DNA of 64,000 bases from contig CAZUKQ010000001.1 of the NCBI GenBank assembly GCA_964621025.1, positions 15,288 through 79,287 of the forward strand. Reading direction: 5' to 3'. How positions within the stretch are numbered: the stretch's first letter is position 1; every line of letters begins with the position of its first letter. The translations under genes and the position numbers were made by a program. This document shows, one piece after another, positions 8,267 to 52,547 of this stretch. The notes under the pieces are model-generated. The model was not told the origin of the DNA and searched no databases. It saw only the letters and a program-made list of their open reading frames with translations. This DNA is from Candidatus Woesearchaeota archaeon (GTDB lineage: Archaea > Nanobdellota > Nanobdellia > Pacearchaeales > GW2011-AR1).

Positions 8267-8776
8267 ATGGTAAACAAACTAAAAAATGGACTTTTAGGAA
8301 TTATCTTAGCGGGAAGTTTAGCTGGTTGCGATATTACTCCTTCAAGAATGGAATACTCTACCGTTCTTCATGAGGACACGGTGGTTAGTAAAAATTTTAT
8401 TCCTTCAAGAAAAGAAACTTCTTCTAGCCCCTCTGTAAGTCCTACACTTGTTAAAATGGGTTCTATGGGGATTGGTGTGAATGGTGGTATGGGTATTTGT
8501 GTTGGTGGTTTTGTTTTCAGTTCTGACGAAGAAGAATATGATACTCCTGAATTATATGATATTTCTTTTAAGGGGAAAAAGACTGTGTTTTCTTTTAGAG
8601 GAGCTGGAGAATCTGATAAGAGATTATATGCTCGATTTGAAGAGGGGCAAATTGTTAAGGTAGATTATAAAGAAAAATATGAGGTTACTTCTTTAGGTAG
8701 AAGCAAAATAGACAATCAAGAGATTATGACTACTAACTTTGTAGAGTTTGTTTTCCTAAATGCCGAGGCTAAATAA
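8267..8776 (+). CDS. lipobox lipoprotein with glycine-zipper segment
   Basis: N-terminus MVNKLKNGLLGIILAGSLAGC carries an L-A-G-C lipobox. GIGVNGGMGICVGGFVF is a glycine zipper. Confidence 0.6.
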   Translation: MVNKLKNGLLGIILAGSLAGCDITPSRMEYSTVLHEDTVVSKNFIPSRKETSSSPSVSPTLVKMGSMGIGVNGGMGICVGGFVFSSDEEEYDTPELYDISFKGKKTVFSFRGAGESDKRLYARFEEGQIVKVDYKEKYEVTSLGRSKIDNQEIMTTNFVEFVFLNAEAK

Positions 8777-8777
8777 A

Positions 8778-9083
8778 ATGACAAAAACGTTAACAACAAC
8801 ATTAAAGAACGTAGGAATTTGCCTTAATGAAAATTGTGTAGGTATTCTTGGAGGACTAGCTTTGGGAACTCTCGACAGTTTAGGAGAACTAGATAACTTT
8901 CAAAGATATGCTAATCTTGGAATTGTTACGGTCGCAAGTACAGCACAAAGAGCAGATAGTCCTAGAATTGTGAAGGAGAAATGTAATGACGGATTGGCTA
9001 ACCTTGAAACTCTTCCGTTACTTGCTGTATCCTATGGATTTGCTAGAGGCGTAACTGAAATTGTAAAAAGATACGCTCTTTAA
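8778..9083 (+). CDS. hypothetical protein (~101 aa)
   Basis: The ORF track gives 8760. ATG 8778 follows the upstream stop directly, so it is preferred. Confidence 0.4.
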   Translation: MTKTLTTTLKNVGICLNENCVGILGGLALGTLDSLGELDNFQRYANLGIVTVASTAQRADSPRIVKEKCNDGLANLETLPLLAVSYGFARGVTEIVKRYAL

Positions 9084-9189
9084 ACAATAAAATTACTTTT
9101 ATTTTTTTAATTAAATTTATAAACCCTTAATACTTAAATAATTTATATTAGAGATAAGAAATACTACATTTCTGTTTGCTAGGTGATTT

Positions 9190-10779
9190 ATGAACAAAGA
9201 AAAACACACTGAAAAAAAGTTTACGAAACCCGCAATGGTTTCTATAGACAAAATTGACAATTCGCTTATTCGTAAGTTCGTTACCGTTAGCGGTTTAATC
9301 GAAAAAGTTATGCAAACTGGCGGACCAACTGTCTTTGGCTTGTCTGACGGAACTGGAAACTTATCTTTGAAAGGTTTTATCGCTCCAGGCGAAAGAGCTT
9401 ACCCGCACATTAACGAAGGCGCTTTGATTGAAGCAACTGTAAAGATTGATGAATTCAACGGCGAGATTGAAGGAAACATTGAAAGAATTTCACAGTTAGT
9501 TGGTAAAGATGAAAAAGATTTACTAGATAAGATTGTTAGAAAACAAAGAGAAAGAGCAAAAGTAAAACAAGAACACTTTATGGTTGACAATAAAATTTTA
9601 GAAAAATTAAAACCAAGAATTTTAAGAGCTGCTGAAGAAATTAGACTGGCAGTTATACAAAGCAGACCAATTATTGTAAGACACCACAATGACACCGACG
9701 GGTATTCTGCTGGTTTCGCTTTGGAAAGAGCAATTTTACCTTTAATTGAAAAACAACATGTTGGACCAAAAGCTGCTTGGGAATATTTCACTAGAGCTCC
9801 TTGTATGGCTCCTTTCTACGAAATTGATGATTCTATAAAAGACACAGCAAACTCTTTGAGAAATGTTGCAAAATTCTCGAACAAAATGCCTTTGATTATC
9901 ATTACAGATAATGGTTCAACACAGGAAGATTTAATGGCAATTAAACAGGGAAGAATTCATGGTTCTGATTTTATTGTTATTGACCATCATGGATTTGAAG
10001 AAGATGTAATTTCGGCTGAAACTTTGGTTCATATTAATCCTTTCTTAGTTGAAGAATCTGGATCTAGTTATTCTGCAGGAATGTTATGTGCAGAAATTGC
10101 AAGATTTATTAATGAAAATGTAAAAAACATGGAACAGATTCCTGCTTTGACTGGTTTGTCTGATAGAATTGACTTGGAAAATCCTACTACTGTAAAAGAA
10201 TACATCAAAATTGCTGAAAAATTAGGTTATACTGAAGAACTTTTGAAAGATATCGCTCTTGTTATCGAATACGTTTCAACTAAGGTAAGATTTATGGAAG
10301 TTAGAGAATATATCGAAGTTTTATTCGGAGAACCAAGACATAAACAAAAAGCTTTGGTAAGTTTATTAGCACCGTATATTAGAGAACTTGATAGAAAAGG
10401 ATTGGAAATTGGAAAGGCCGGTGCCGTTGTAGAAAAAATTAAAGGCGTTACATTACAAATTGTTCCTATTGAACAAACTTTCCCAGGATTTGGATTTTTC
10501 CCTAAACCAGGAAGAGCAGTTAGTTTATTACATGATAATTTACAAAAAGAAAAAGGCGTTACAAAATTAGTTTCAGCAGGAGTTATGAACACGGCTATAA
10601 CTTTCAGAGCAACTGACGACGCTAATTTCTCAATGCATGAATTGATTGACTTATTAAAGAAAAGATTACCTAACGCTTTTGTTGAAGGCGGCGGACATAA
10701 GAATGCAGGTGCAATTAATTATATTCCAAAAATGAAAGAAGAAGTTTTCGAAGTTGTGAAAGAGTATATTGGAAGATAG
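9190..10779 (+). CDS. RecJ-like DHH-family phosphoesterase with N-terminal OB fold (HAN/RecJ2-like)
   Basis: N-terminal OB-like segment, HHNDTDGYSAG (DHH motifs I-II), VIDHHG (DHH), C-terminal GGGHKNAG (DHHA1). AGGTGAT SD lies 3 nt before the ATG. Confidence 0.75.
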   Translation: MNKEKHTEKKFTKPAMVSIDKIDNSLIRKFVTVSGLIEKVMQTGGPTVFGLSDGTGNLSLKGFIAPGERAYPHINEGALIEATVKIDEFNGEIEGNIERISQLVGKDEKDLLDKIVRKQRERAKVKQEHFMVDNKILEKLKPRILRAAEEIRLAVIQSRPIIVRHHNDTDGYSAGFALERAILPLIEKQHVGPKAAWEYFTRAPCMAPFYEIDDSIKDTANSLRNVAKFSNKMPLIIITDNGSTQEDLMAIKQGRIHGSDFIVIDHHGFEEDVISAETLVHINPFLVEESGSSYSAGMLCAEIARFINENVKNMEQIPALTGLSDRIDLENPTTVKEYIKIAEKLGYTEELLKDIALVIEYVSTKVRFMEVREYIEVLFGEPRHKQKALVSLLAPYIRELDRKGLEIGKAGAVVEKIKGVTLQIVPIEQTFPGFGFFPKPGRAVSLLHDNLQKEKGVTKLVSAGVMNTAITFRATDDANFSMHELIDLLKKRLPNAFVEGGGHKNAGAINYIPKMKEEVFEVVKEYIGR

Positions 10780-34225: not shown

Positions 34226-34759
34226 TTATTGTTTCTCTAAAGCCAACATATAACTGCCCTTACCCCTATCTAAAATCTGATAAAACTGCTTTGATTTAAA
34301 TTTTGCAGCTCTTTGTTTTTGAAGTTCATTGAAATTTTCTACATAACCCTGTGAAACTGCTTGATTTAGAGGAGCCAGCTTTTGAATAACATAGAGATAA
34401 AGTTCTTTTTTCGCAAATTCTGAAGGTTTATCATTGACGGCGATAGTTAAATCTGATAAAAGAGAGCCTAAAATTCTTACAGAGTTTTTACTGTCCTTTT
34501 CCGGAGTGTAAATAATCTCTCTAACTTCGTGAGCTTGTAGATCCTCTCTTCCGATTTGAAAACTATTGAATTTTACTGCATAATTCACGGCATCATTTTC
34601 ACTGTAAATGAATAATCTTTCTAATTCATAGACAAAACAGCAGGCAATCATAGGTTCCATCAGAGATTCTTTGTGTAAAACTGCTTTTTCTAAATCAGAA
34701 AAAAAATTTTCTAAATTGTCTTTACAATCTTCAATTAAAATTTCAGTTAATCTCCCCAT
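34226..34759 (-). CDS. hypothetical helical protein translationally coupled to mcm
   Basis: Its ATG overlaps the mcm stop (TAATG). No motif recognised. Confidence 0.5.
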   Translation of the reverse strand: MGRLTEILIEDCKDNLENFFSDLEKAVLHKESLMEPMIACCFVYELERLFIYSENDAVNYAVKFNSFQIGREDLQAHEVREIIYTPEKDSKNSVRILGSLLSDLTIAVNDKPSEFAKKELYLYVIQKLAPLNQAVSQGYVENFNELQKQRAAKFKSKQFYQILDRGKGSYMLALEKQ

Positions 34760-36816
34760 TACATTCTTTGAACATAACCTCTTCTGGGTCTGAACAAATC
34801 TCCGGCTCTTACGAGCTTATCAATTGTTTCTGCTAATTCATCAGAGGGCATTTTTTCTCCTACTGCTTTTTCTAGTTCTTCCATAGGAATTAGTTTTCCT
34901 AATCTCCCTTCCAGCTCTTCTAAAACTTCTTTTACAATATGAATTTTATTTCTCTTTGAAGCAGGATTTCCTCCGATTTTGTCAATATCAAAACTCTTTG
35001 TTTCTTCGTCGTAACCAACTTGCATCATATAAAATTTCATAAGTTCAATTGCGTCCAAAGCATCTTGTTCTGTTACCTCTTTTCCAAGTCTTGAACGTGC
35101 TGTTGCTTCTGCCAATCTGACTAGCGCTTCTAACTGTCTCGCGGAAATTGGAATAGGTCTCACTGCTGCGTCTCCAGTAAATGATTGCTGATTTCTTAAA
35201 CCTACATAGAAACTCTTTATTCTTTTTATCGCAGCGTCTGATAAAACAGGATTACATTTTTGTTTTGAGTAAGCAACATATTTTCTTAGTAGATCTTTTT
35301 CGATAATATCTCTTTTTGCAGTTTGCTGGTGTTCTGCTAAAACGTGTGAAGCAATACTTTCATCTCTTTCTCTATTTGGTAAATCTCTTAGAATAAATAA
35401 AACGTCGAAACGATTTAACAAAGAAGGAGCTAAGTTAACTTGTTTCGCAATCATTTCATCCGGATTAAATCTACCATACTTAGGGTTTGCTGCTGCTAAA
35501 ACTGCAGTCTGTGCTCTTAATGTTGCCTGAACATTTGCTTTGGAAATTGTAACTGTCTGCTGTTCCATCGCTTCATGCATCGTCGATCTATCGTTCTCAT
35601 CCATTTTTTCTAACTCATCAATACAAACTAAACCTTTGTTAGAAAGAACCATCGCACCCGCTTCTAAGCTCCAGCCTCTTAAAAATTCATCTTTTACTAC
35701 CGTCGCTGTTAAACCAGCTCCGGATGCAGATTTACCGGAAACGTATCTTCCTTTTGGTGCAATTCCAGAAATAAATTTTAACATAACGGATTTTGCGACA
35801 CCCGGATCACCAACTAATAAAATATGAATATCTCCTCTCGTTTCTGTTCCATCGGATCTTCTTTTTTTAACTCCTCCGAATAATTGTAAAATTAAAGATT
35901 GTTTTATTTCAGGGTAACCCCAAACAGAAGGTGCGACCGAAGCTGTAAGTCTTTTAAGAATTAATGGGTCTGCTGCTAGTTCTCTTATTTCTTGTTCATC
36001 TTCTTCTGAAATTTCTAACTGATCGAAAGTTTCTTCCATAGGAATAATGTTATTTGCTTCAACTGCTAAATCATATCTTGTTGACAAAGCACCTGTTGCA
36101 AGAGAAATTGAAACTTCGTTTAAAACTCCTATAATTCTTACTTTGCTACCTGGCGTTGTTTTTTCTTCCATTCGTGGTTCTACTAAATCTTCTTTTAGGA
36201 AAACATTCATTCTCTTTGGTTGTTCTCCACCGGAAAGTGCATCAGGAGATTCTTCAATTACTAATCTTTGAGCGTCAACCATGTCTTTGGAAATTTCTCT
36301 GAAACCCCCTCGTCTACCACAGGAACATCTTGATGGTTCTTGGAATTTTTTATCAATTTGTAATACTGAAATAATTGTTCCACAGGATGGACATTCGAAT
36401 TTTGCGTTTGTAACTTGGGGTCTTACTTCGGAAGCCTGTCTTACAATTCCTTCAATTGAAATTAAATTTCCTAAGTGTTTCGCTCTGATGTTTCTTATTT
36501 TTATTTCCTGTGTTTTGGAAATGGAAGTTAGTCTAACCTTTGCATCAGAGATTAAACCCAAGTCCTCTAGCGCCAATTCTAAAAGTTGTAAAGTTTCTTC
36601 AGGTTTTGTGATAAGTCTTTCTGCTAAATCTGGTGAGAATTCGGATAAATCATCAAAAGCAACTGTAACTACTTTTTCACCTTTCTTCGCGTTTGGACCT
36701 AGATTCTTTCTTTGTGTTCCAAAAAAGTTTTTTGCCTCATTTAACAGTTCCTCTTGATTCTGTTTTGGTTCGCCTTTGTCTGGCAAATCCATCGGCATGT
36801 CATCCATATCTTCCAT
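34759..36816 (-). CDS. mcm: MCM replicative helicase
   Basis: Zn motif CPSCG...CSCG, Walker A GDPGVAKS, Walker B CIDELEKM, arginine finger LLNRFD and a C-terminal wH. Confidence 0.92.
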   Translation of the reverse strand: MEDMDDMPMDLPDKGEPKQNQEELLNEAKNFFGTQRKNLGPNAKKGEKVVTVAFDDLSEFSPDLAERLITKPEETLQLLELALEDLGLISDAKVRLTSISKTQEIKIRNIRAKHLGNLISIEGIVRQASEVRPQVTNAKFECPSCGTIISVLQIDKKFQEPSRCSCGRRGGFREISKDMVDAQRLVIEESPDALSGGEQPKRMNVFLKEDLVEPRMEEKTTPGSKVRIIGVLNEVSISLATGALSTRYDLAVEANNIIPMEETFDQLEISEEDEQEIRELAADPLILKRLTASVAPSVWGYPEIKQSLILQLFGGVKKRRSDGTETRGDIHILLVGDPGVAKSVMLKFISGIAPKGRYVSGKSASGAGLTATVVKDEFLRGWSLEAGAMVLSNKGLVCIDELEKMDENDRSTMHEAMEQQTVTISKANVQATLRAQTAVLAAANPKYGRFNPDEMIAKQVNLAPSLLNRFDVLFILRDLPNRERDESIASHVLAEHQQTAKRDIIEKDLLRKYVAYSKQKCNPVLSDAAIKRIKSFYVGLRNQQSFTGDAAVRPIPISARQLEALVRLAEATARSRLGKEVTEQDALDAIELMKFYMMQVGYDEETKSFDIDKIGGNPASKRNKIHIVKEVLEELEGRLGKLIPMEELEKAVGEKMPSDELAETIDKLVRAGDLFRPRRGYVQRM

Positions 36817-39988: not shown

Positions 39989-40384
39989 ATGGTCAAAGGA
40001 ACAATAGCAAAAACACTTGTAGGAATTGCTCTAGCTGGAAGTTTGACTAGTTGTAAAAATGATTATTCTCAATATCAATATGGCGGAAGAATTGGAGAAG
40101 AGAAAGTGAAGTTTTGTCATGAAGAAGGTTTTTGGAGCAGTACTAAAAATACTTTGATGATTACTAAACCTGAAGGAAAAAGAAGTATAGAGTATATAGA
40201 CTCATTTGGTAATGATTTAAAATTGGAATATGTTAAAATTGTTGTTGATAGTCAAGAAACAACCTATGGTTATTCTGATGAAGCTGAAAAACAGGTAGTT
40301 GAAGCAGCTCAAAAACAATTTGATAGTTATTTACAACAAATAAAAGAATTAAAAATTAAACAAGGATTGGAGAACTTAAAATAA
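39989..40384 (+). CDS. lipobox lipoprotein (131 aa)
   Basis: MVKGTIAKTLVGIALAGSLTSC carries an L-T-S-C lipobox. Confidence 0.55.
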   Translation: MVKGTIAKTLVGIALAGSLTSCKNDYSQYQYGGRIGEEKVKFCHEEGFWSSTKNTLMITKPEGKRSIEYIDSFGNDLKLEYVKIVVDSQETTYGYSDEAEKQVVEAAQKQFDSYLQQIKELKIKQGLENLK

Positions 40385-48895: not shown

Positions 48896-50260
48896 ATGGT
48901 TGAAAAAGAATATACTTTTTTGGAGGCAACAACTTCTCTTTGTAATGTTTGCGAAAAAAGAATAGATGCGAAAATAATTGAAAAGAATAAATCGGTTTAT
49001 ATTTTAAAAAATTGTTTAGAACACGGCGAACAAATTGAATTATTGGAAGAGGATGCCGTTTATCACAGAAGAAAAATTCAGTATGACAAACCGGGAAACA
49101 AAATAAGGCCTGAAACTGCTGTGAAGAAGAGTTGTCCATTTGATTGTGGTCTTTGTTCTGCGCATGAACAACATACCTGTAATGCTCTAATCGATGTGAC
49201 TGATAAATGTGATTTGTGTTGCCCAATGTGCTACGCTTCTAGCGGAAAGGGGAAACATTTAGAGTTAAAAAAAATTGAAGAGATGATGGATTTTTTCCAG
49301 AAAAAAGAAGATGGAAAGGCTGAAATTTTGCAAATCAGCGGCGGAGAACCAACAACTCACCCAGAAATTATAAAAATACTTGAAATTGCAAAGAAAAAGA
49401 AATTTAGATATATAATGTTAAACACAAATGGATTGAAAATCGCTAGCGATGAAAATTTTGTTAAAGAACTTTCTAAGTTTAAAGGAAGATTTGAAATTTA
49501 TCTGCAGTTTGATGGTTTTAAAGATTCTACTTATAGATTCCTTAGAGGAAGAGAAGATTTATTGAAAACTAAAATGAAAGCAATTGAAAATTTGCAAAAA
49601 TATAAAATTCCAATAACTCTTGTTGCGACTATACAAAGGGGAATAAACGAAGATGAAATTGGAAAAATCTTTGAGTTTGCTGTTAACACGCGAGGAATAA
49701 GGGGAATAAATTTTCAGCCGGTTGCTTTTTTTGGAAGAACAAATAAATTTGATACCAAAGATAGAATTACACTTTCTGGAATTGTGAATAGACTTGAACA
49801 ACAAACTAAGGGAATGGTTAAGCGAACAGACATAATTCCTCTGCCTTGTAATGTTAATCGTGTTGGTGTGAGTTATTTTTACAAAGACGCGAAGGGATTT
49901 TTTCCCTTGACGAGAAATTTGAATGTTAGTTCTTACTTGCCTTTAATCGATAACACTTTTGCATTTGATGCAGATAAAATTTTAGAAGATAAAACAAAGG
50001 CTATTGGTTGTTGTAGCTGTTTTACAAAGTTTTTTAATGATTTTAGTAAATTAATTCCAAAGGATTACAAAAAATTCTCCAATGAAGAGAAGATGAACTG
50101 GTGGGATGAACATTCTTTTAGAGTTAGTATTGTTTCCTTTGTTGACAAATACAATTTTGATATGAAATCTATGAAAAAAGAATGCGTACATTTCGTAACT
50201 CCTGATATGAAAAGAATTCCTTTTTCTTCGTATAATATGTTTTACAGAAAGGCGATTTAG
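48896..50260 (+). CDS. radical SAM enzyme with N-terminal Cys-rich segment and extra CPFDCGLC cluster motif (possibly tetraether-lipid-synthase/MJ0619-like clade)
   Basis: CNVCEKR...NCLEHG, CPFDCGLCSAHEQHTC, the radical SAM motif CDLCCPMC (C-x3-C-x2-C), ISGGEPT, and a ~200-aa C-terminal extension with CC.C. Confidence 0.8.
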   Translation: MVEKEYTFLEATTSLCNVCEKRIDAKIIEKNKSVYILKNCLEHGEQIELLEEDAVYHRRKIQYDKPGNKIRPETAVKKSCPFDCGLCSAHEQHTCNALIDVTDKCDLCCPMCYASSGKGKHLELKKIEEMMDFFQKKEDGKAEILQISGGEPTTHPEIIKILEIAKKKKFRYIMLNTNGLKIASDENFVKELSKFKGRFEIYLQFDGFKDSTYRFLRGREDLLKTKMKAIENLQKYKIPITLVATIQRGINEDEIGKIFEFAVNTRGIRGINFQPVAFFGRTNKFDTKDRITLSGIVNRLEQQTKGMVKRTDIIPLPCNVNRVGVSYFYKDAKGFFPLTRNLNVSSYLPLIDNTFAFDADKILEDKTKAIGCCSCFTKFFNDFSKLIPKDYKKFSNEEKMNWWDEHSFRVSIVSFVDKYNFDMKSMKKECVHFVTPDMKRIPFSSYNMFYRKAI

Positions 50261-50294: not shown

Positions 50295-50504
50295 ATGGAA
50301 GCAAAGAAGGTGATTTTAATTCTATTGACAATTTTTATAGTTGGTCCTTTGGTTTTTATTGGTACTTGTTTTCCATTAGGTCTTTTTAGTTTTGGCATGT
50401 ACTCTAACTATAATACCTTTGTTGTGACCTTTGTCTATGCTTTGTCAATAACCTTCGCAATTTGGGTAGTTATTGCAATGTCTAAAAGGATTGCTAGAAA
50501 ATAA
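50295..50504 (+). CDS. small 2-TM membrane protein (paralog A)
   Basis: KKVILILLTIFIVGPLVFIGTCFPL parallels 51087-51323. ATATAAAC lies 28 nt upstream. Confidence 0.5.
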   Translation: MEAKKVILILLTIFIVGPLVFIGTCFPLGLFSFGMYSNYNTFVVTFVYALSITFAIWVVIAMSKRIARK

Positions 50505-50505
50505 G

Positions 50506-51093
50506 ATGAATATTCTTCTAATCAATTCCATTATAACAAGCATTGCGTTTGTAGTTATTGTTCTCGCTGTTTTAATTGATTTCATTGAAAATCATGCTGG
50601 AAGAAAGGCGGAGAAAGAAAAGAAGAGCTGGGTTGAAACTGGGACAATGTTTGTTTTTTTCTTTTTGTTTTATTTTGTAATCAGATTTAAAGTAGGAATT
50701 GTTAGTGTTCCATTGAACTCTTTAGCAATTTTTGAGATTTATCTTTGCTGGTTTGTAATTTTTCTTGGAACTTGGTTTAATGTTGCAGGAAGAATTACTC
50801 TCGGAAAAAACTGGGCGAACCAAATAAAAATTTACAAGAATCATACTTTGAAAAAAGAAGGAGTTTATTCTATTGTTAGACATCCACTTTATGCATCCTT
50901 GATTTGGATTTTTTACGCTTGTTCTATTATTTATTTTAATGTTGCTGCATTTTTCCTTAACACATTAGTTTTTGTGCCAATGATGTACTATCGAGCAAAA
51001 CAAGAAGAAAAATTCTTATCGGAACAATTTAAAAACTATAAAGACTATCAGAAAGAGGTAGGAATGTTTATTCCAAAATTTAAAATATGGTAG
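50506..51093 (+). CDS. ICMT/PEMT-family membrane methyltransferase
   Basis: Polytopic protein with GVYSIVRHPLYASLIW (the RHPxY signature). Start at ATG 50506, 1 nt after the upstream stop. Confidence 0.7.
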   Translation: MNILLINSIITSIAFVVIVLAVLIDFIENHAGRKAEKEKKSWVETGTMFVFFFLFYFVIRFKVGIVSVPLNSLAIFEIYLCWFVIFLGTWFNVAGRITLGKNWANQIKIYKNHTLKKEGVYSIVRHPLYASLIWIFYACSIIYFNVAAFFLNTLVFVPMMYYRAKQEEKFLSEQFKNYKDYQKEVGMFIPKFKIW

Positions 51094-51323
51094 ACACTAG
51101 GGAAATTAAAGAAAAATTAAGTATGAAGAAAGTTGTGTTAATGACTTTAACTGGTTTATTTATTGGTCCTTTGGTTTTTTTTGGTAGTTGTGTTCCTCTT
51201 CTGGGTTTTTCAGAGAGCTTTGGAGATAAATATGTAATCTTCTATTTTTTTAGTTTTATATTATCTGTAGTTCTTACCGGCCTAGTATGTTATTTTATTA
51301 TAAAAAGGATTCTTAAAAAATGA
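51087..51323 (+). CDS. small 2-TM membrane protein (paralog B)
   Basis: KKVVLMTLTGLFIGPLVFFGSCVPL parallels 50295-50504. Confidence 0.5.
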   Translation: MVDTREIKEKLSMKKVVLMTLTGLFIGPLVFFGSCVPLLGFSESFGDKYVIFYFFSFILSVVLTGLVCYFIIKRILKK

Positions 51324-51778
51324 AACAACAAATAGCAAAAGTCAAAAGCGCGGAATTTTTTTTCTGCCGAATCGGAGTGATGCTTTTAGTTTGGGCTGCA
51401 CTTATCTTTAGAAGTAAAGACTTAGTTCTATTAAGTTTTGTAATTCTTCTACTCTCCGCGATTTTCACAGTTAGATATGCGCCGATGATTTTAATTTGGA
51501 GATACACCTTAGGTATTTTCTTTAATTCGAATGATGAACTATTGAATGTTAAAGCAATGAGATTTGCACATTCTCTTGGAACTGTTCTTGCTGGAATTTG
51601 TTTGTTGTTCTTATATTTCGGGAATCAAACCGTTGGATGGGGCTTCGTTGCTTTTTTCGCAATAATGAAAACAATTTCTGCTTTTGGTTTCTGTCCGGCT
51701 TCTAAAGTTTATGTCTGCATGTCAAATGGAACTTGCTGTGCTTTTTCTAGAAAAATGAAAAAAATGAGAGAGAAATAA
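51320..51778 (+). CDS. membrane protein, DUF4395-like
   Basis: 4 TM segments and a C-terminal GFCPASKVYVCM...CC motif. Family assigned from memory. Confidence 0.45.
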   Translation: MKQQIAKVKSAEFFFCRIGVMLLVWAALIFRSKDLVLLSFVILLLSAIFTVRYAPMILIWRYTLGIFFNSNDELLNVKAMRFAHSLGTVLAGICLLFLYFGNQTVGWGFVAFFAIMKTISAFGFCPASKVYVCMSNGTCCAFSRKMKKMREK

Positions 51779-51779
51779 A

Positions 51780-52547
51780 ATGTTCGACTTTCACACCGTT
51801 CCTGTTTCTGACTGGGGAGTTTTACCTGTTTTGTTTAAAGTTGGAGATATTCCCATTTCTTCCTATTCTTTCTTCATGTTGTTGGCGATTGTCTTGGGTA
51901 GTTTAGTCTATTGGCTTGAGGCGAGAAAACAAAAGATGGCTAATGAGAATAGTTTTTACATTATTATTGCTGCTTTGATTGGTGGTGCTATTGGTGCGAA
52001 ACTCCTGATAGTTATTTACTATTGGAATCAGATTGTTGCTAGCTTTCCTGACTTGACTATTCTGCTTTCTGGTCGGTCTATTCTTGGCGGTTTGGTAGGA
52101 GGGTTTCTGGGAGTGTTATTAGTTAAAAAGAAATTGAAGATACAAGGGAGAAGAGGAAATTTGTTTGTCCCTGCGATTGCGCTCGGTGTAGCTATTGGAA
52201 GAATTGGCTGTTTCTTGGCTGGATGTTGCTTTGGTGATCCTACGAGTTTGCCATGGGGCGTTGATTTTGGTGACGGAATTTTAAGACATCCTACACAGCT
52301 GTATGAATCTCTGTTTATGCTTGGCGTGTTCTTCTATTCTAAATGGAAGTTGAAAGATAAGAAGCTTAAGCCGGGACAGTTGTTTAATCAGTTCATAATA
52401 ATCTATTTTGTTTGGAGATTCCTTGTTAGTTTCATTAGGGCTGAACCTTCTGTTCTTTTTGGACTTGACTTCTTCCAGTGGTTTTCTCTAGGTGCAATTA
52501 TATTGTTTTGGATTAGGGGAAGAAAATTTAGGAAACAGAATAAATAA
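51780..52547 (+). CDS. lgt: prolipoprotein diacylglyceryl transferase (bacterial-type Lgt)
   Basis: GRIGCFLAGCCFGDPTSLPWGV and RHPTQLYESL are Lgt signatures. Polytopic, ~255 aa. Confidence 0.8.
   Translation: MFDFHTVPVSDWGVLPVLFKVGDIPISSYSFFMLLAIVLGSLVYWLEARKQKMANENSFYIIIAALIGGAIGAKLLIVIYYWNQIVASFPDLTILLSGRSILGGLVGGFLGVLLVKKKLKIQGRRGNLFVPAIALGVAIGRIGCFLAGCCFGDPTSLPWGVDFGDGILRHPTQLYESLFMLGVFFYSKWKLKDKKLKPGQLFNQFIIIYFVWRFLVSFIRAEPSVLFGLDFFQWFSLGAIILFWIRGRKFRKQNK

Follow-up and report, generated by a model that had tools for sequence, protein, structure and literature searches.

Results

A six-gene cassette in an archaeal genome

Six genes lie on the same strand (+) between positions 48896 and 52547 of the window (the whole 64,000-nucleotide stretch of DNA that was analysed), and the last of them encodes a protein of the Lgt family. 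These genes, together with the other features to which we refer by position, are listed in Table 1. The genes are closely packed, with most neighbours either overlapping slightly or separated by 1 nt. The gap between the radical SAM gene and sm1 is 34 nt; a single nucleotide separates the stop of sm1 from the ATG of the ICMT-like gene, and the same spacing is seen between the DUF4395 stop and the ATG of the Lgt-like gene. The ICMT-like gene and sm2 overlap by 7 nt, and sm2 and the DUF4395 gene by 4 nt. For the ICMT-like gene the start was placed at ATG 50506, the ORF lister having given TTG 50473. A sequence-only reading of this DNA had described the Lgt-like gene as the end of a tight operon with the DUF4395, ICMT-like and radical SAM genes, linked by 1-nt spacers or overlaps, and this description was borne out.

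Table 1. Positions of the cassette genes and of other features mentioned in the text. Positions are those of the window unless a contig (C2, of genome G000) is given.
Feature	Position	Strand	Remarks
Tes/TrsS-like radical SAM enzyme, first cassette gene	48896..50260	+	Pfam Zn_ribbon_HMPTM (N-terminal zinc ribbon) and Radical_SAM
sm1, 69-aa two-helix membrane protein, candidate substrate	50295..50504	+	GPLVFIGTC at residues 17-25
ICMT/PEMT-family membrane methyltransferase	50506..51093	+	PF04140, 45.9 bits; PF04191, 39.4 bits
sm2, 78-aa paralogue of sm1	51087..51323	+	GPLVFFGSC; alternative start 51123
DUF4395 membrane protein with conserved Cys motifs	51320..51778	+	PF14340, 53 bits
Cys-type Lgt-family paralogue, 255 aa	51780..52547	+	PF01790; ATG-to-TAA ORF
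Full-length MCM	34759..36816		On the cassette contig
Classical lipobox protein	8267..8776
Classical lipobox protein	39989..40384
Other G000 lipobox locus	C2:133978-134403
Other G000 lipobox locus	C2:64974-65174
Other G000 lipobox locus	C2:138569-139111

gatB is located 24 nt downstream of the Lgt-like gene. The insertion site of the cassette was not definable by comparison with the sister genome G258, since synteny is too eroded and gatB is the sole match. Rfam and tRNA scans of the window returned no matches, and scans of the window for sigma-70 promoters and terminators, with models that are not applicable to archaea, did no better than on shuffled sequence.

The 626-kb genome to which the window belongs (G000) has a completeness of 81.7%, which bounds every absence call made in it. 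It encodes ribosomal protein L21e, a family whose matches among the control genomes were confined to the four archaeal ones and which is missing from the genome of L007, which served as the negative control for this archaeal marker. The top scores of its rRNA pieces were obtained with the archaeal SSU and LSU models. The cassette contig also encodes an ATP-dependent DNA ligase, the full-length MCM and further genes of archaeal type, base composition is even along the window, and the GC content is 0.327 for the cassette and 0.336 for the window. A chimeric contig or binning error, which the sequence-only reading had named as one finding that would overturn it, is ruled out by the MCM, the ligase, the archaeal neighbours, the matching GC and the archaeal relative L152 described below.

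An Lgt-family protein with an altered signature

The Lgt-like protein is encoded by an intact ORF and matches Pfam PF01790 with 143.5 bits (cutoff 24.9) over residues 16-242, corresponding to profile positions 1-233 of 240. This confirms that an Lgt-family gene is present on an archaeal contig. The protein nevertheless falls under all seven NCBIfam Lgt equivalog cutoffs, scoring 93.3 vs 118.9 for TIGR00544 and 132.9 vs 334 for NF000778.

Residues were mapped by alignment to E. coli Lgt from NC_000913.3. The canonical Lgt signature is GRxGNFxNxExxG; in the window protein it reads GRIGCFLAGCCFG, with N146, N149 and E151 replaced by C144, A147 and C149. H103 and E243 are also substituted, by L102 and S217 respectively, and the H103GGL motif (H, Y, W or F at 103) is absent. 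Among the residues retained (E. coli = window) are Y26=Y29, R143=R141, G154=G152, H196=H170, Y235=Y209, R239=R213 and R246=R220; of these, R143, R239 and R246 contact the phosphate of the phospholipid in E. coli Lgt. The three strings quoted earlier as Lgt signatures, namely GRIGCFLAGCCFG, LPWG and RHPTQLYE, are all present, but the signature cannot be called clear, given the replacement of N146, N149, E151 and H103 and the scores under every equivalog cutoff.

These features are shared by the relatives of the protein. In a 28-sequence alignment (A1) the equivalents of R143, R239, Y26 and G154 are invariant, and each of the three cysteines that make up the full complement of the window protein (C144, C149 and C150) is at least 90% conserved. 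The 120 closest database proteins, at 50-65% identity, have the motif GR[IL]GCF[LF]xGCC[FY]G, and at position 103 these homologues carry V, T, L or I, where other Lgts have Y, W or F. Serine at the E243 position is confined to the window copy, more than 90% of the clade retaining E.

An AlphaFold model generated with the 28 homologues of A1 had a pLDDT of 89.2 and a pTM of 0.85, and its one significant PDB match was E. coli Lgt (5AZB; E 2e-9, TM 0.72). The modelled fold and the phospholipid-binding arginines are thus Lgt-like, and the signature motif is not. In E. coli Lgt, residues Y26, H103, R143, N146, G154 and R239 are essential whereas E151A and E243A are tolerated, and distant Lgts with N146C exist, of which that of Leptospira shows partial function in E. 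coli (PMC13251419). Since these changes are tolerated or leave partial function, the substitutions in the window protein would leave thiol-lipid transfer possible. The aliphatic residue at position 103 across the clade implies that the catalytic mechanism differs, or that activity may be low.

The proteins encoded with the Lgt-like gene

The radical SAM enzyme of the window scored 353.8 bits against TrsS (cutoff 490) and 313 bits against Tes (cutoff 450). Similar values were obtained for the cassette radical SAM proteins in every lineage tested, at about 345-375 bits against TrsS and about 305-325 against Tes. As they fall under both cutoffs, these enzymes are best regarded as a third branch of that superfamily. 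TrsS itself was reportedly defined by Haft and Tolstoy in 2025. The ICMT-like methyltransferase reached 72.5 bits against the NCBIfam model isopcys_mtase, under its cutoff of 160, and the DUF4395 cassette proteins had no match among NCBIfam models. The DUF4395 proteins carry an FxFCR motif near the N-terminus and GFCPAxKxYxCMxxGxCC near the C-terminus, and their cysteines are common to the window, L005, L007, L012, L014, L145 and L146, that is, to archaeal as well as bacterial cassettes.

With the exception of L010, in the flanks of which no small Cys protein was found, every cassette read encodes one or more small membrane proteins whose single conserved Cys lies in a P-x-x-x-x-G-[GAST]-C helix. 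The motif often lies near the N-terminus in archaeal cassettes, as in sm1 and sm2 of the window, the six copies of L005 and the single copies of L151, L152 and L154. Most bacterial cassettes, and also the archaeal genomes G361 and G097, have a type of about 105-130 aa that ends in ...G[GA]C followed by 5-15 residues. In most cassettes the Lgt-like gene is followed by a gene for a small protein with a C-terminal motif, of which the window has no counterpart. When all small ORFs of G000 were considered, sm1 and sm2 alone carried the motif. In the small Cys proteins of the minimal cassette of a Fimbriimonas sp. (L056:8360-8932 and 8929-9231) we observed an N-terminal CxxC...CxxC zinc-ribbon-like segment fused to an LPFALFGSC or APFAFAGGC helix.

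The cassette defines a clade that spans archaea and bacteria

In a 143-row maximum-likelihood tree, limited to rows of up to 340 aa (a limit that excluded L010), all cassette copies and their close environmental homologues formed one 38-row clade with an SH-aLRT of 100. This clade is apart from the canonical Lgts and from the stand-alone bacterial Cys-type Lgts; the N146C Lgts of Leptospira interrogans and M. smegmatis (MSMEG_5408) are absent from the tree. The clade comprises DPANN archaea, Patescibacteria, Bacteroidota and Bacillota, and its archaeal and bacterial rows are interleaved.

A radical SAM gene adjoins the Lgt-like gene in clade members wherever the flanks suffice (the L011 and P0011 contigs end before it), and the ICMT-like and DUF4395 genes are usual. 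The full cassette was found at L005, L007, L010, L012, L013, L014, L028, L145, L146, L151 and L152 and on a 355-kb JGI contig. The hosts include a member of the Pacearchaeota (L005), one of the Patescibacteria (L007) and the archaeal genomes G361 and G097 (L145 and L146), while L010-L014 and L028 belong to Actinobacteria, Bacteroidales, Lentimicrobium, Clostridiaceae and Eubacteriales. The nearest relatives of the window copy (L151, L152 and the P0011 contig) have a gene order identical to that of the window, and L152 (genome G438), the nearest relative with a known genome, is archaeal. Loci such as L154, from the closed genome of an archaeon, L155 and L056 (Armatimonadota) have no more than a minimal trio, in which an Lgt-like gene is combined with a radical SAM gene and small Cys proteins. 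We found no published description of the cassette, of a canonical DPANN Lgt or of a DPANN Lsp in the searchable literature.

Genes of possible relevance to processing were seen just downstream of some cassettes. Peptidase_M48 (Ste24-type) genes are present at L005:7607-8440 and L006:3026-3928, and Rce1-like genes of the CAAX-protease family at L007:7146-7838 and L008:3829-4521. Together with the ICMT-like gene these neighbours resemble CAAX processing; the window has no such neighbour.

Cysteine-bearing Lgts were also seen outside the cassette clade. Stand-alone Cys-type Lgts (GRIGCFLxGCCYG) occur at more than 586 bacterial loci, usually beside a canonical Lgt, and several are among L015-L089, for example L032 (Clostridium sardiniense) and L076 (Roseburia hominis). 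Four archaeal loci, L115, L119, L121 and L128 (G288, G150, G276 and G313), have Cys at N146 and other residues at E151; these variants, such as GCVLGDGGHLG and GCFLNWDDLG, group near the canonical clade and not with the cassette clade.

Canonical Lgt and Lsp in the phylum and in the window's family

Eight of the nine bacterial genomes checked carry, alongside the Cys-type copy, a higher-scoring Lgt with the canonical H/N/N/E set. The exception is Clostridium cavendishii (G002), in which the canonical N/E signature is missing from both copies (L094, L097). G097 and G361, the two further archaeal genomes with a close cassette copy, likewise encode a canonical Lgt (L147, L148). The window gene is therefore a cassette paralogue and not a housekeeping Lgt: what had been taken for a general Lgt of the bacterial type belongs to a form that is confined to a conserved cassette and coexists with canonical Lgt elsewhere.

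Canonical Lgt is widespread in the phylum. With the window protein as query, 280 matches were obtained in a sample of 401 phylum genomes, and 17 of the 29 best loci read were fully canonical Lgts. When the query was instead a canonical Lgt from an archaeon, matches at E <= 1e-30 were obtained in 134 of the 151 genomes sampled, and Lsp (PF01252) was found above the Pfam cutoff in 336 of the 401. Four single-contig genomes having both Lgt matches and Lsp were verified as archaeal by L21e and a full MCM. A fully canonical archaeal Lgt is exemplified by L126 (G033:C1:534700-535488), the one Lgt locus that was read among these four genomes, and canonical archaeal Lgts group with the bacterial canonical Lgts (SH-aLRT 98). 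Examples of archaeal Lsp are G013:C1:744575-744961 and G018:C1:1132296-1132694. The general statement that archaea lack Lgt and Lsp thus fails in this phylum, closed archaeal genomes included. The sample includes six unpublished genomes (G252, G253, G331, G342, G369 and G405); they contribute at most six to the tallies, together with locus L129 and its tree row, and the conclusions are independent of all six.

The window's own family gave a different result. There the window protein had no match in 27 genomes, a PF01790 protein was found in none of five near-complete genomes, a homologue of the cassette radical SAM enzyme in none of 30 sister genomes, and Lsp gave one weak match in 27. G000 has one PF01790 gene, that of the cassette. 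The search for lsp that the sequence-only reading had suggested, positive across the phylum as given above, returned no match at E <= 1 in G000, a genome that is ~82% complete. Since the family is devoid of Lgt, Lsp and the cassette, we infer that the cassette was gained horizontally in a lineage-specific manner.

Classical lipobox proteins

G000 encodes about five proteins with a classical lipobox at the N-terminus, two of them in the window (Table 1). The lipobox forms seen in G000 and in G258:C1 (L157-L176) are LAGC, LTSC, LTGC, LVGC and LGAC. The density of such proteins was 1.05 per 100 kb in the sister genome G258, which has neither PF01790 nor Lsp, vs 1.12 in G000, and the reversed-sequence null for the lipobox count was 0. 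This equal density in a genome without PF01790 suggests that these proteins may not depend on the window gene. AliA is the known archaeal route to lipobox lipidation, and another route, perhaps AliA-like, may operate in the window's family. Homologues of the lipobox protein at 8267 are absent from 30 sister genomes, and this protein hence provides no co-occurrence signal.

Discussion

A dedicated thiol-lipid transferase is the reading we favour

On balance, the sequence features lead us to favour, with some reserve, the idea that the Lgt-like enzyme is a dedicated thiol-lipid transferase for the small Cys proteins of the cassette. As in Lgt, it would move the glyceryl-lipid part of a membrane phospholipid to a Cys thiol, and this thiol would be that of the lipobox-like Cys in the small proteins that the cassette itself encodes, which in the window are sm1 and sm2. 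The positive-inside rule predicts an N-in/C-out helix with this Cys at its outer end, which is the geometry of a lipobox Cys. The radical SAM enzyme would next alter the attached lipid tails, and the ICMT-like enzyme would contribute a methyl group. We look for the acceptor among the small proteins because the trio of Lgt-like gene, radical SAM gene and small Cys protein is conserved and because the motif is lipobox-like. Several points weigh against this reading: the aliphatic residue at the H103 position, S217, the absence from the window of the protein with a C-terminal motif, and the L010 cassette with no small Cys protein. The presence of about five classical lipobox proteins in G000, a genome ~82% complete in which we found neither a canonical Lgt nor an Lsp, also leaves some room for a general role. 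We do not assign the role of a general prolipoprotein Lgt to the window enzyme.

This pathway can be taken a step further, though we regard the step as speculative and improbable. The cassette could be an undescribed protein-lipidation pathway that anaerobic bacteria share with DPANN archaea and that would be, on the basis of Lgt chemistry, the prokaryotic equivalent of CAAX processing. Here the Cys-type Lgt would attach a glycerolipid to the one conserved Cys of each tiny membrane protein, and the Tes-like radical SAM enzyme would join the tails of this lipid, giving an anchor that is macrocyclic or spans the membrane. The short hydrophobic tail past the Cys would be removed, and the ICMT-like enzyme would then methyl-esterify the lipidated Cys.

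It is unlikely, in our assessment, that the window gene is instead the general prolipoprotein Lgt of this archaeon, modifying proteins such as those at 8267 and 39989 with an archaeal or host-derived lipid, as the sequence-only reading had proposed. The enzyme does retain the Lgt fold and R143, R239, Y26 and G154, its N146C substitution is compatible with partial function in Leptospira (PMC13251419), and G000 has about five classical lipobox N-termini and no canonical Lgt that we could find. However, the clade coexists with a canonical Lgt in eight of nine bacterial and in both other archaeal genomes, and a radical SAM neighbour is there wherever the flanks suffice. That Lsp was not found in G000 also speaks against a prolipoprotein pathway, as does the lipobox density of sisters without PF01790, which matches that of G000, and the 8267 protein, having no homologue in 30 sisters, lends no co-occurrence signal.

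We are similarly doubtful that the cassette remodels free membrane lipids and not proteins, an activity that might be useful to lipid-scavenging DPANN or CPR cells. The Lgt-like enzyme would then move a glyceryl-lipid between lipids or to a small thiol, the Tes-like enzyme would couple tails, and the PEMT-like enzyme would methylate a head group. Tes/GDGT-MAS relatives are reported to work on lipid tails (PMC8941075, PMC9433317), lipid methyltransferases of the PEMT and LmtA kinds are among the matches of the cassette methyltransferase, and many of the hosts are DPANN or Patescibacteria. Yet the cassette is found also in hosts with 2.4-3.8 Mb genomes from the Clostridiaceae, Bacteroidales, Lentimicrobium and Actinobacteria, and a small protein with a single Cys accompanies nearly every cassette, the minimal trios included, which a pure lipid pathway leaves unexplained.

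Lastly, a decaying or inactive Lgt relic, or an artefact of assembly or binning, is very improbable: H103 and N146, essential in E. coli, are indeed substituted and S217 departs from the clade consensus, but the ORF is intact, archaeal and bacterial homologues at 50-65% identity share the three Cys and all the other core residues, the structural model is confident, the contig includes archaeal genes such as those for MCM and DNA ligase and has a matching GC, and L152 (G438), the nearest relative of known genome, is archaeal with the same gene order.

Significance

Two specialist papers of 2025-2026 state that archaea are without Lgt homologues (PMC12462473, PMC13251419). An Lgt-family gene native to an archaeal contig, and canonical Lgt and Lsp across most of its phylum, contradict both. 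The observation made in the sequence-only reading is thus confirmed, and its interpretation holds in part. If lipidation of the small Cys proteins is the true route, lipid anchors of a new chemical kind would be involved, a large branch of the Tes family that is now an orphan would acquire a function, and the second lgt in about 1,300 bacterial genomes would be accounted for. The window gene also calls for caution in annotation, as a PF01790 match alone does not make a prolipoprotein diacylglyceryl transferase.

Comparison with known systems

The closest point of reference is E. coli Lgt (5AZB/5AZC; PF01790; TIGR00544), with which the window protein shares the Pfam family, a seven-helix fold (TM 0.72) and the conserved residues Y26, G99, G104, G142, R143, G145, G154, H196, Y235, R239 and R246. 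The likely acceptor is also of the same kind, being, to judge from the sequences, a Cys that comes after small residues where a hydrophobic helix ends. The window protein differs in having L/C/A/C/S at H103/N146/N149/E151/E243 and a TIGR00544 score under the cutoff, in its radical SAM cassette, in the lack of any Lsp partner found in G000, and in coexisting with a canonical Lgt in other hosts. The canonical Lgts of the window's phylum belong to the same Pfam family, but they have the H/N/N/E set and Lsp is present with them; the window's family lacks them.

With the N146C Lgts of Leptospira interrogans and M. smegmatis MSMEG_5408, the latter a second copy beside the major Lgt, the window protein has in common the Cys at N146 and, in some of them, a change of E151 to C or D (PMC13251419). 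For these, unlike the cassette proteins, no neighbours of the radical SAM, ICMT, DUF4395 or small-Cys-protein kind are reported (PMC13251419).

The cassette radical SAM enzyme resembles Tes/GDGT-MAS (NF045702) and TrsS (NF045646) in its N-terminal zinc ribbon and core, with full-length matches, but it scores under the curated cutoffs and is linked to an Lgt-like gene, not to lipid-synthesis genes.

An analogy may be drawn with eukaryotic CAAX processing (prenyltransferase, Rce1/Ste24 and ICMT), where lipidation of a Cys through a thioether is paired with a methyltransferase of the ICMT family, as it might be here. In contrast to that system the cassette has no prenyltransferase, and its Cys is in a membrane helix and not in a soluble C-terminal CAAX box.

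Finally, AliA and AliB have only marginal similarity to Lgt (PMC12462473), whereas the window protein is a clear member of PF01790.
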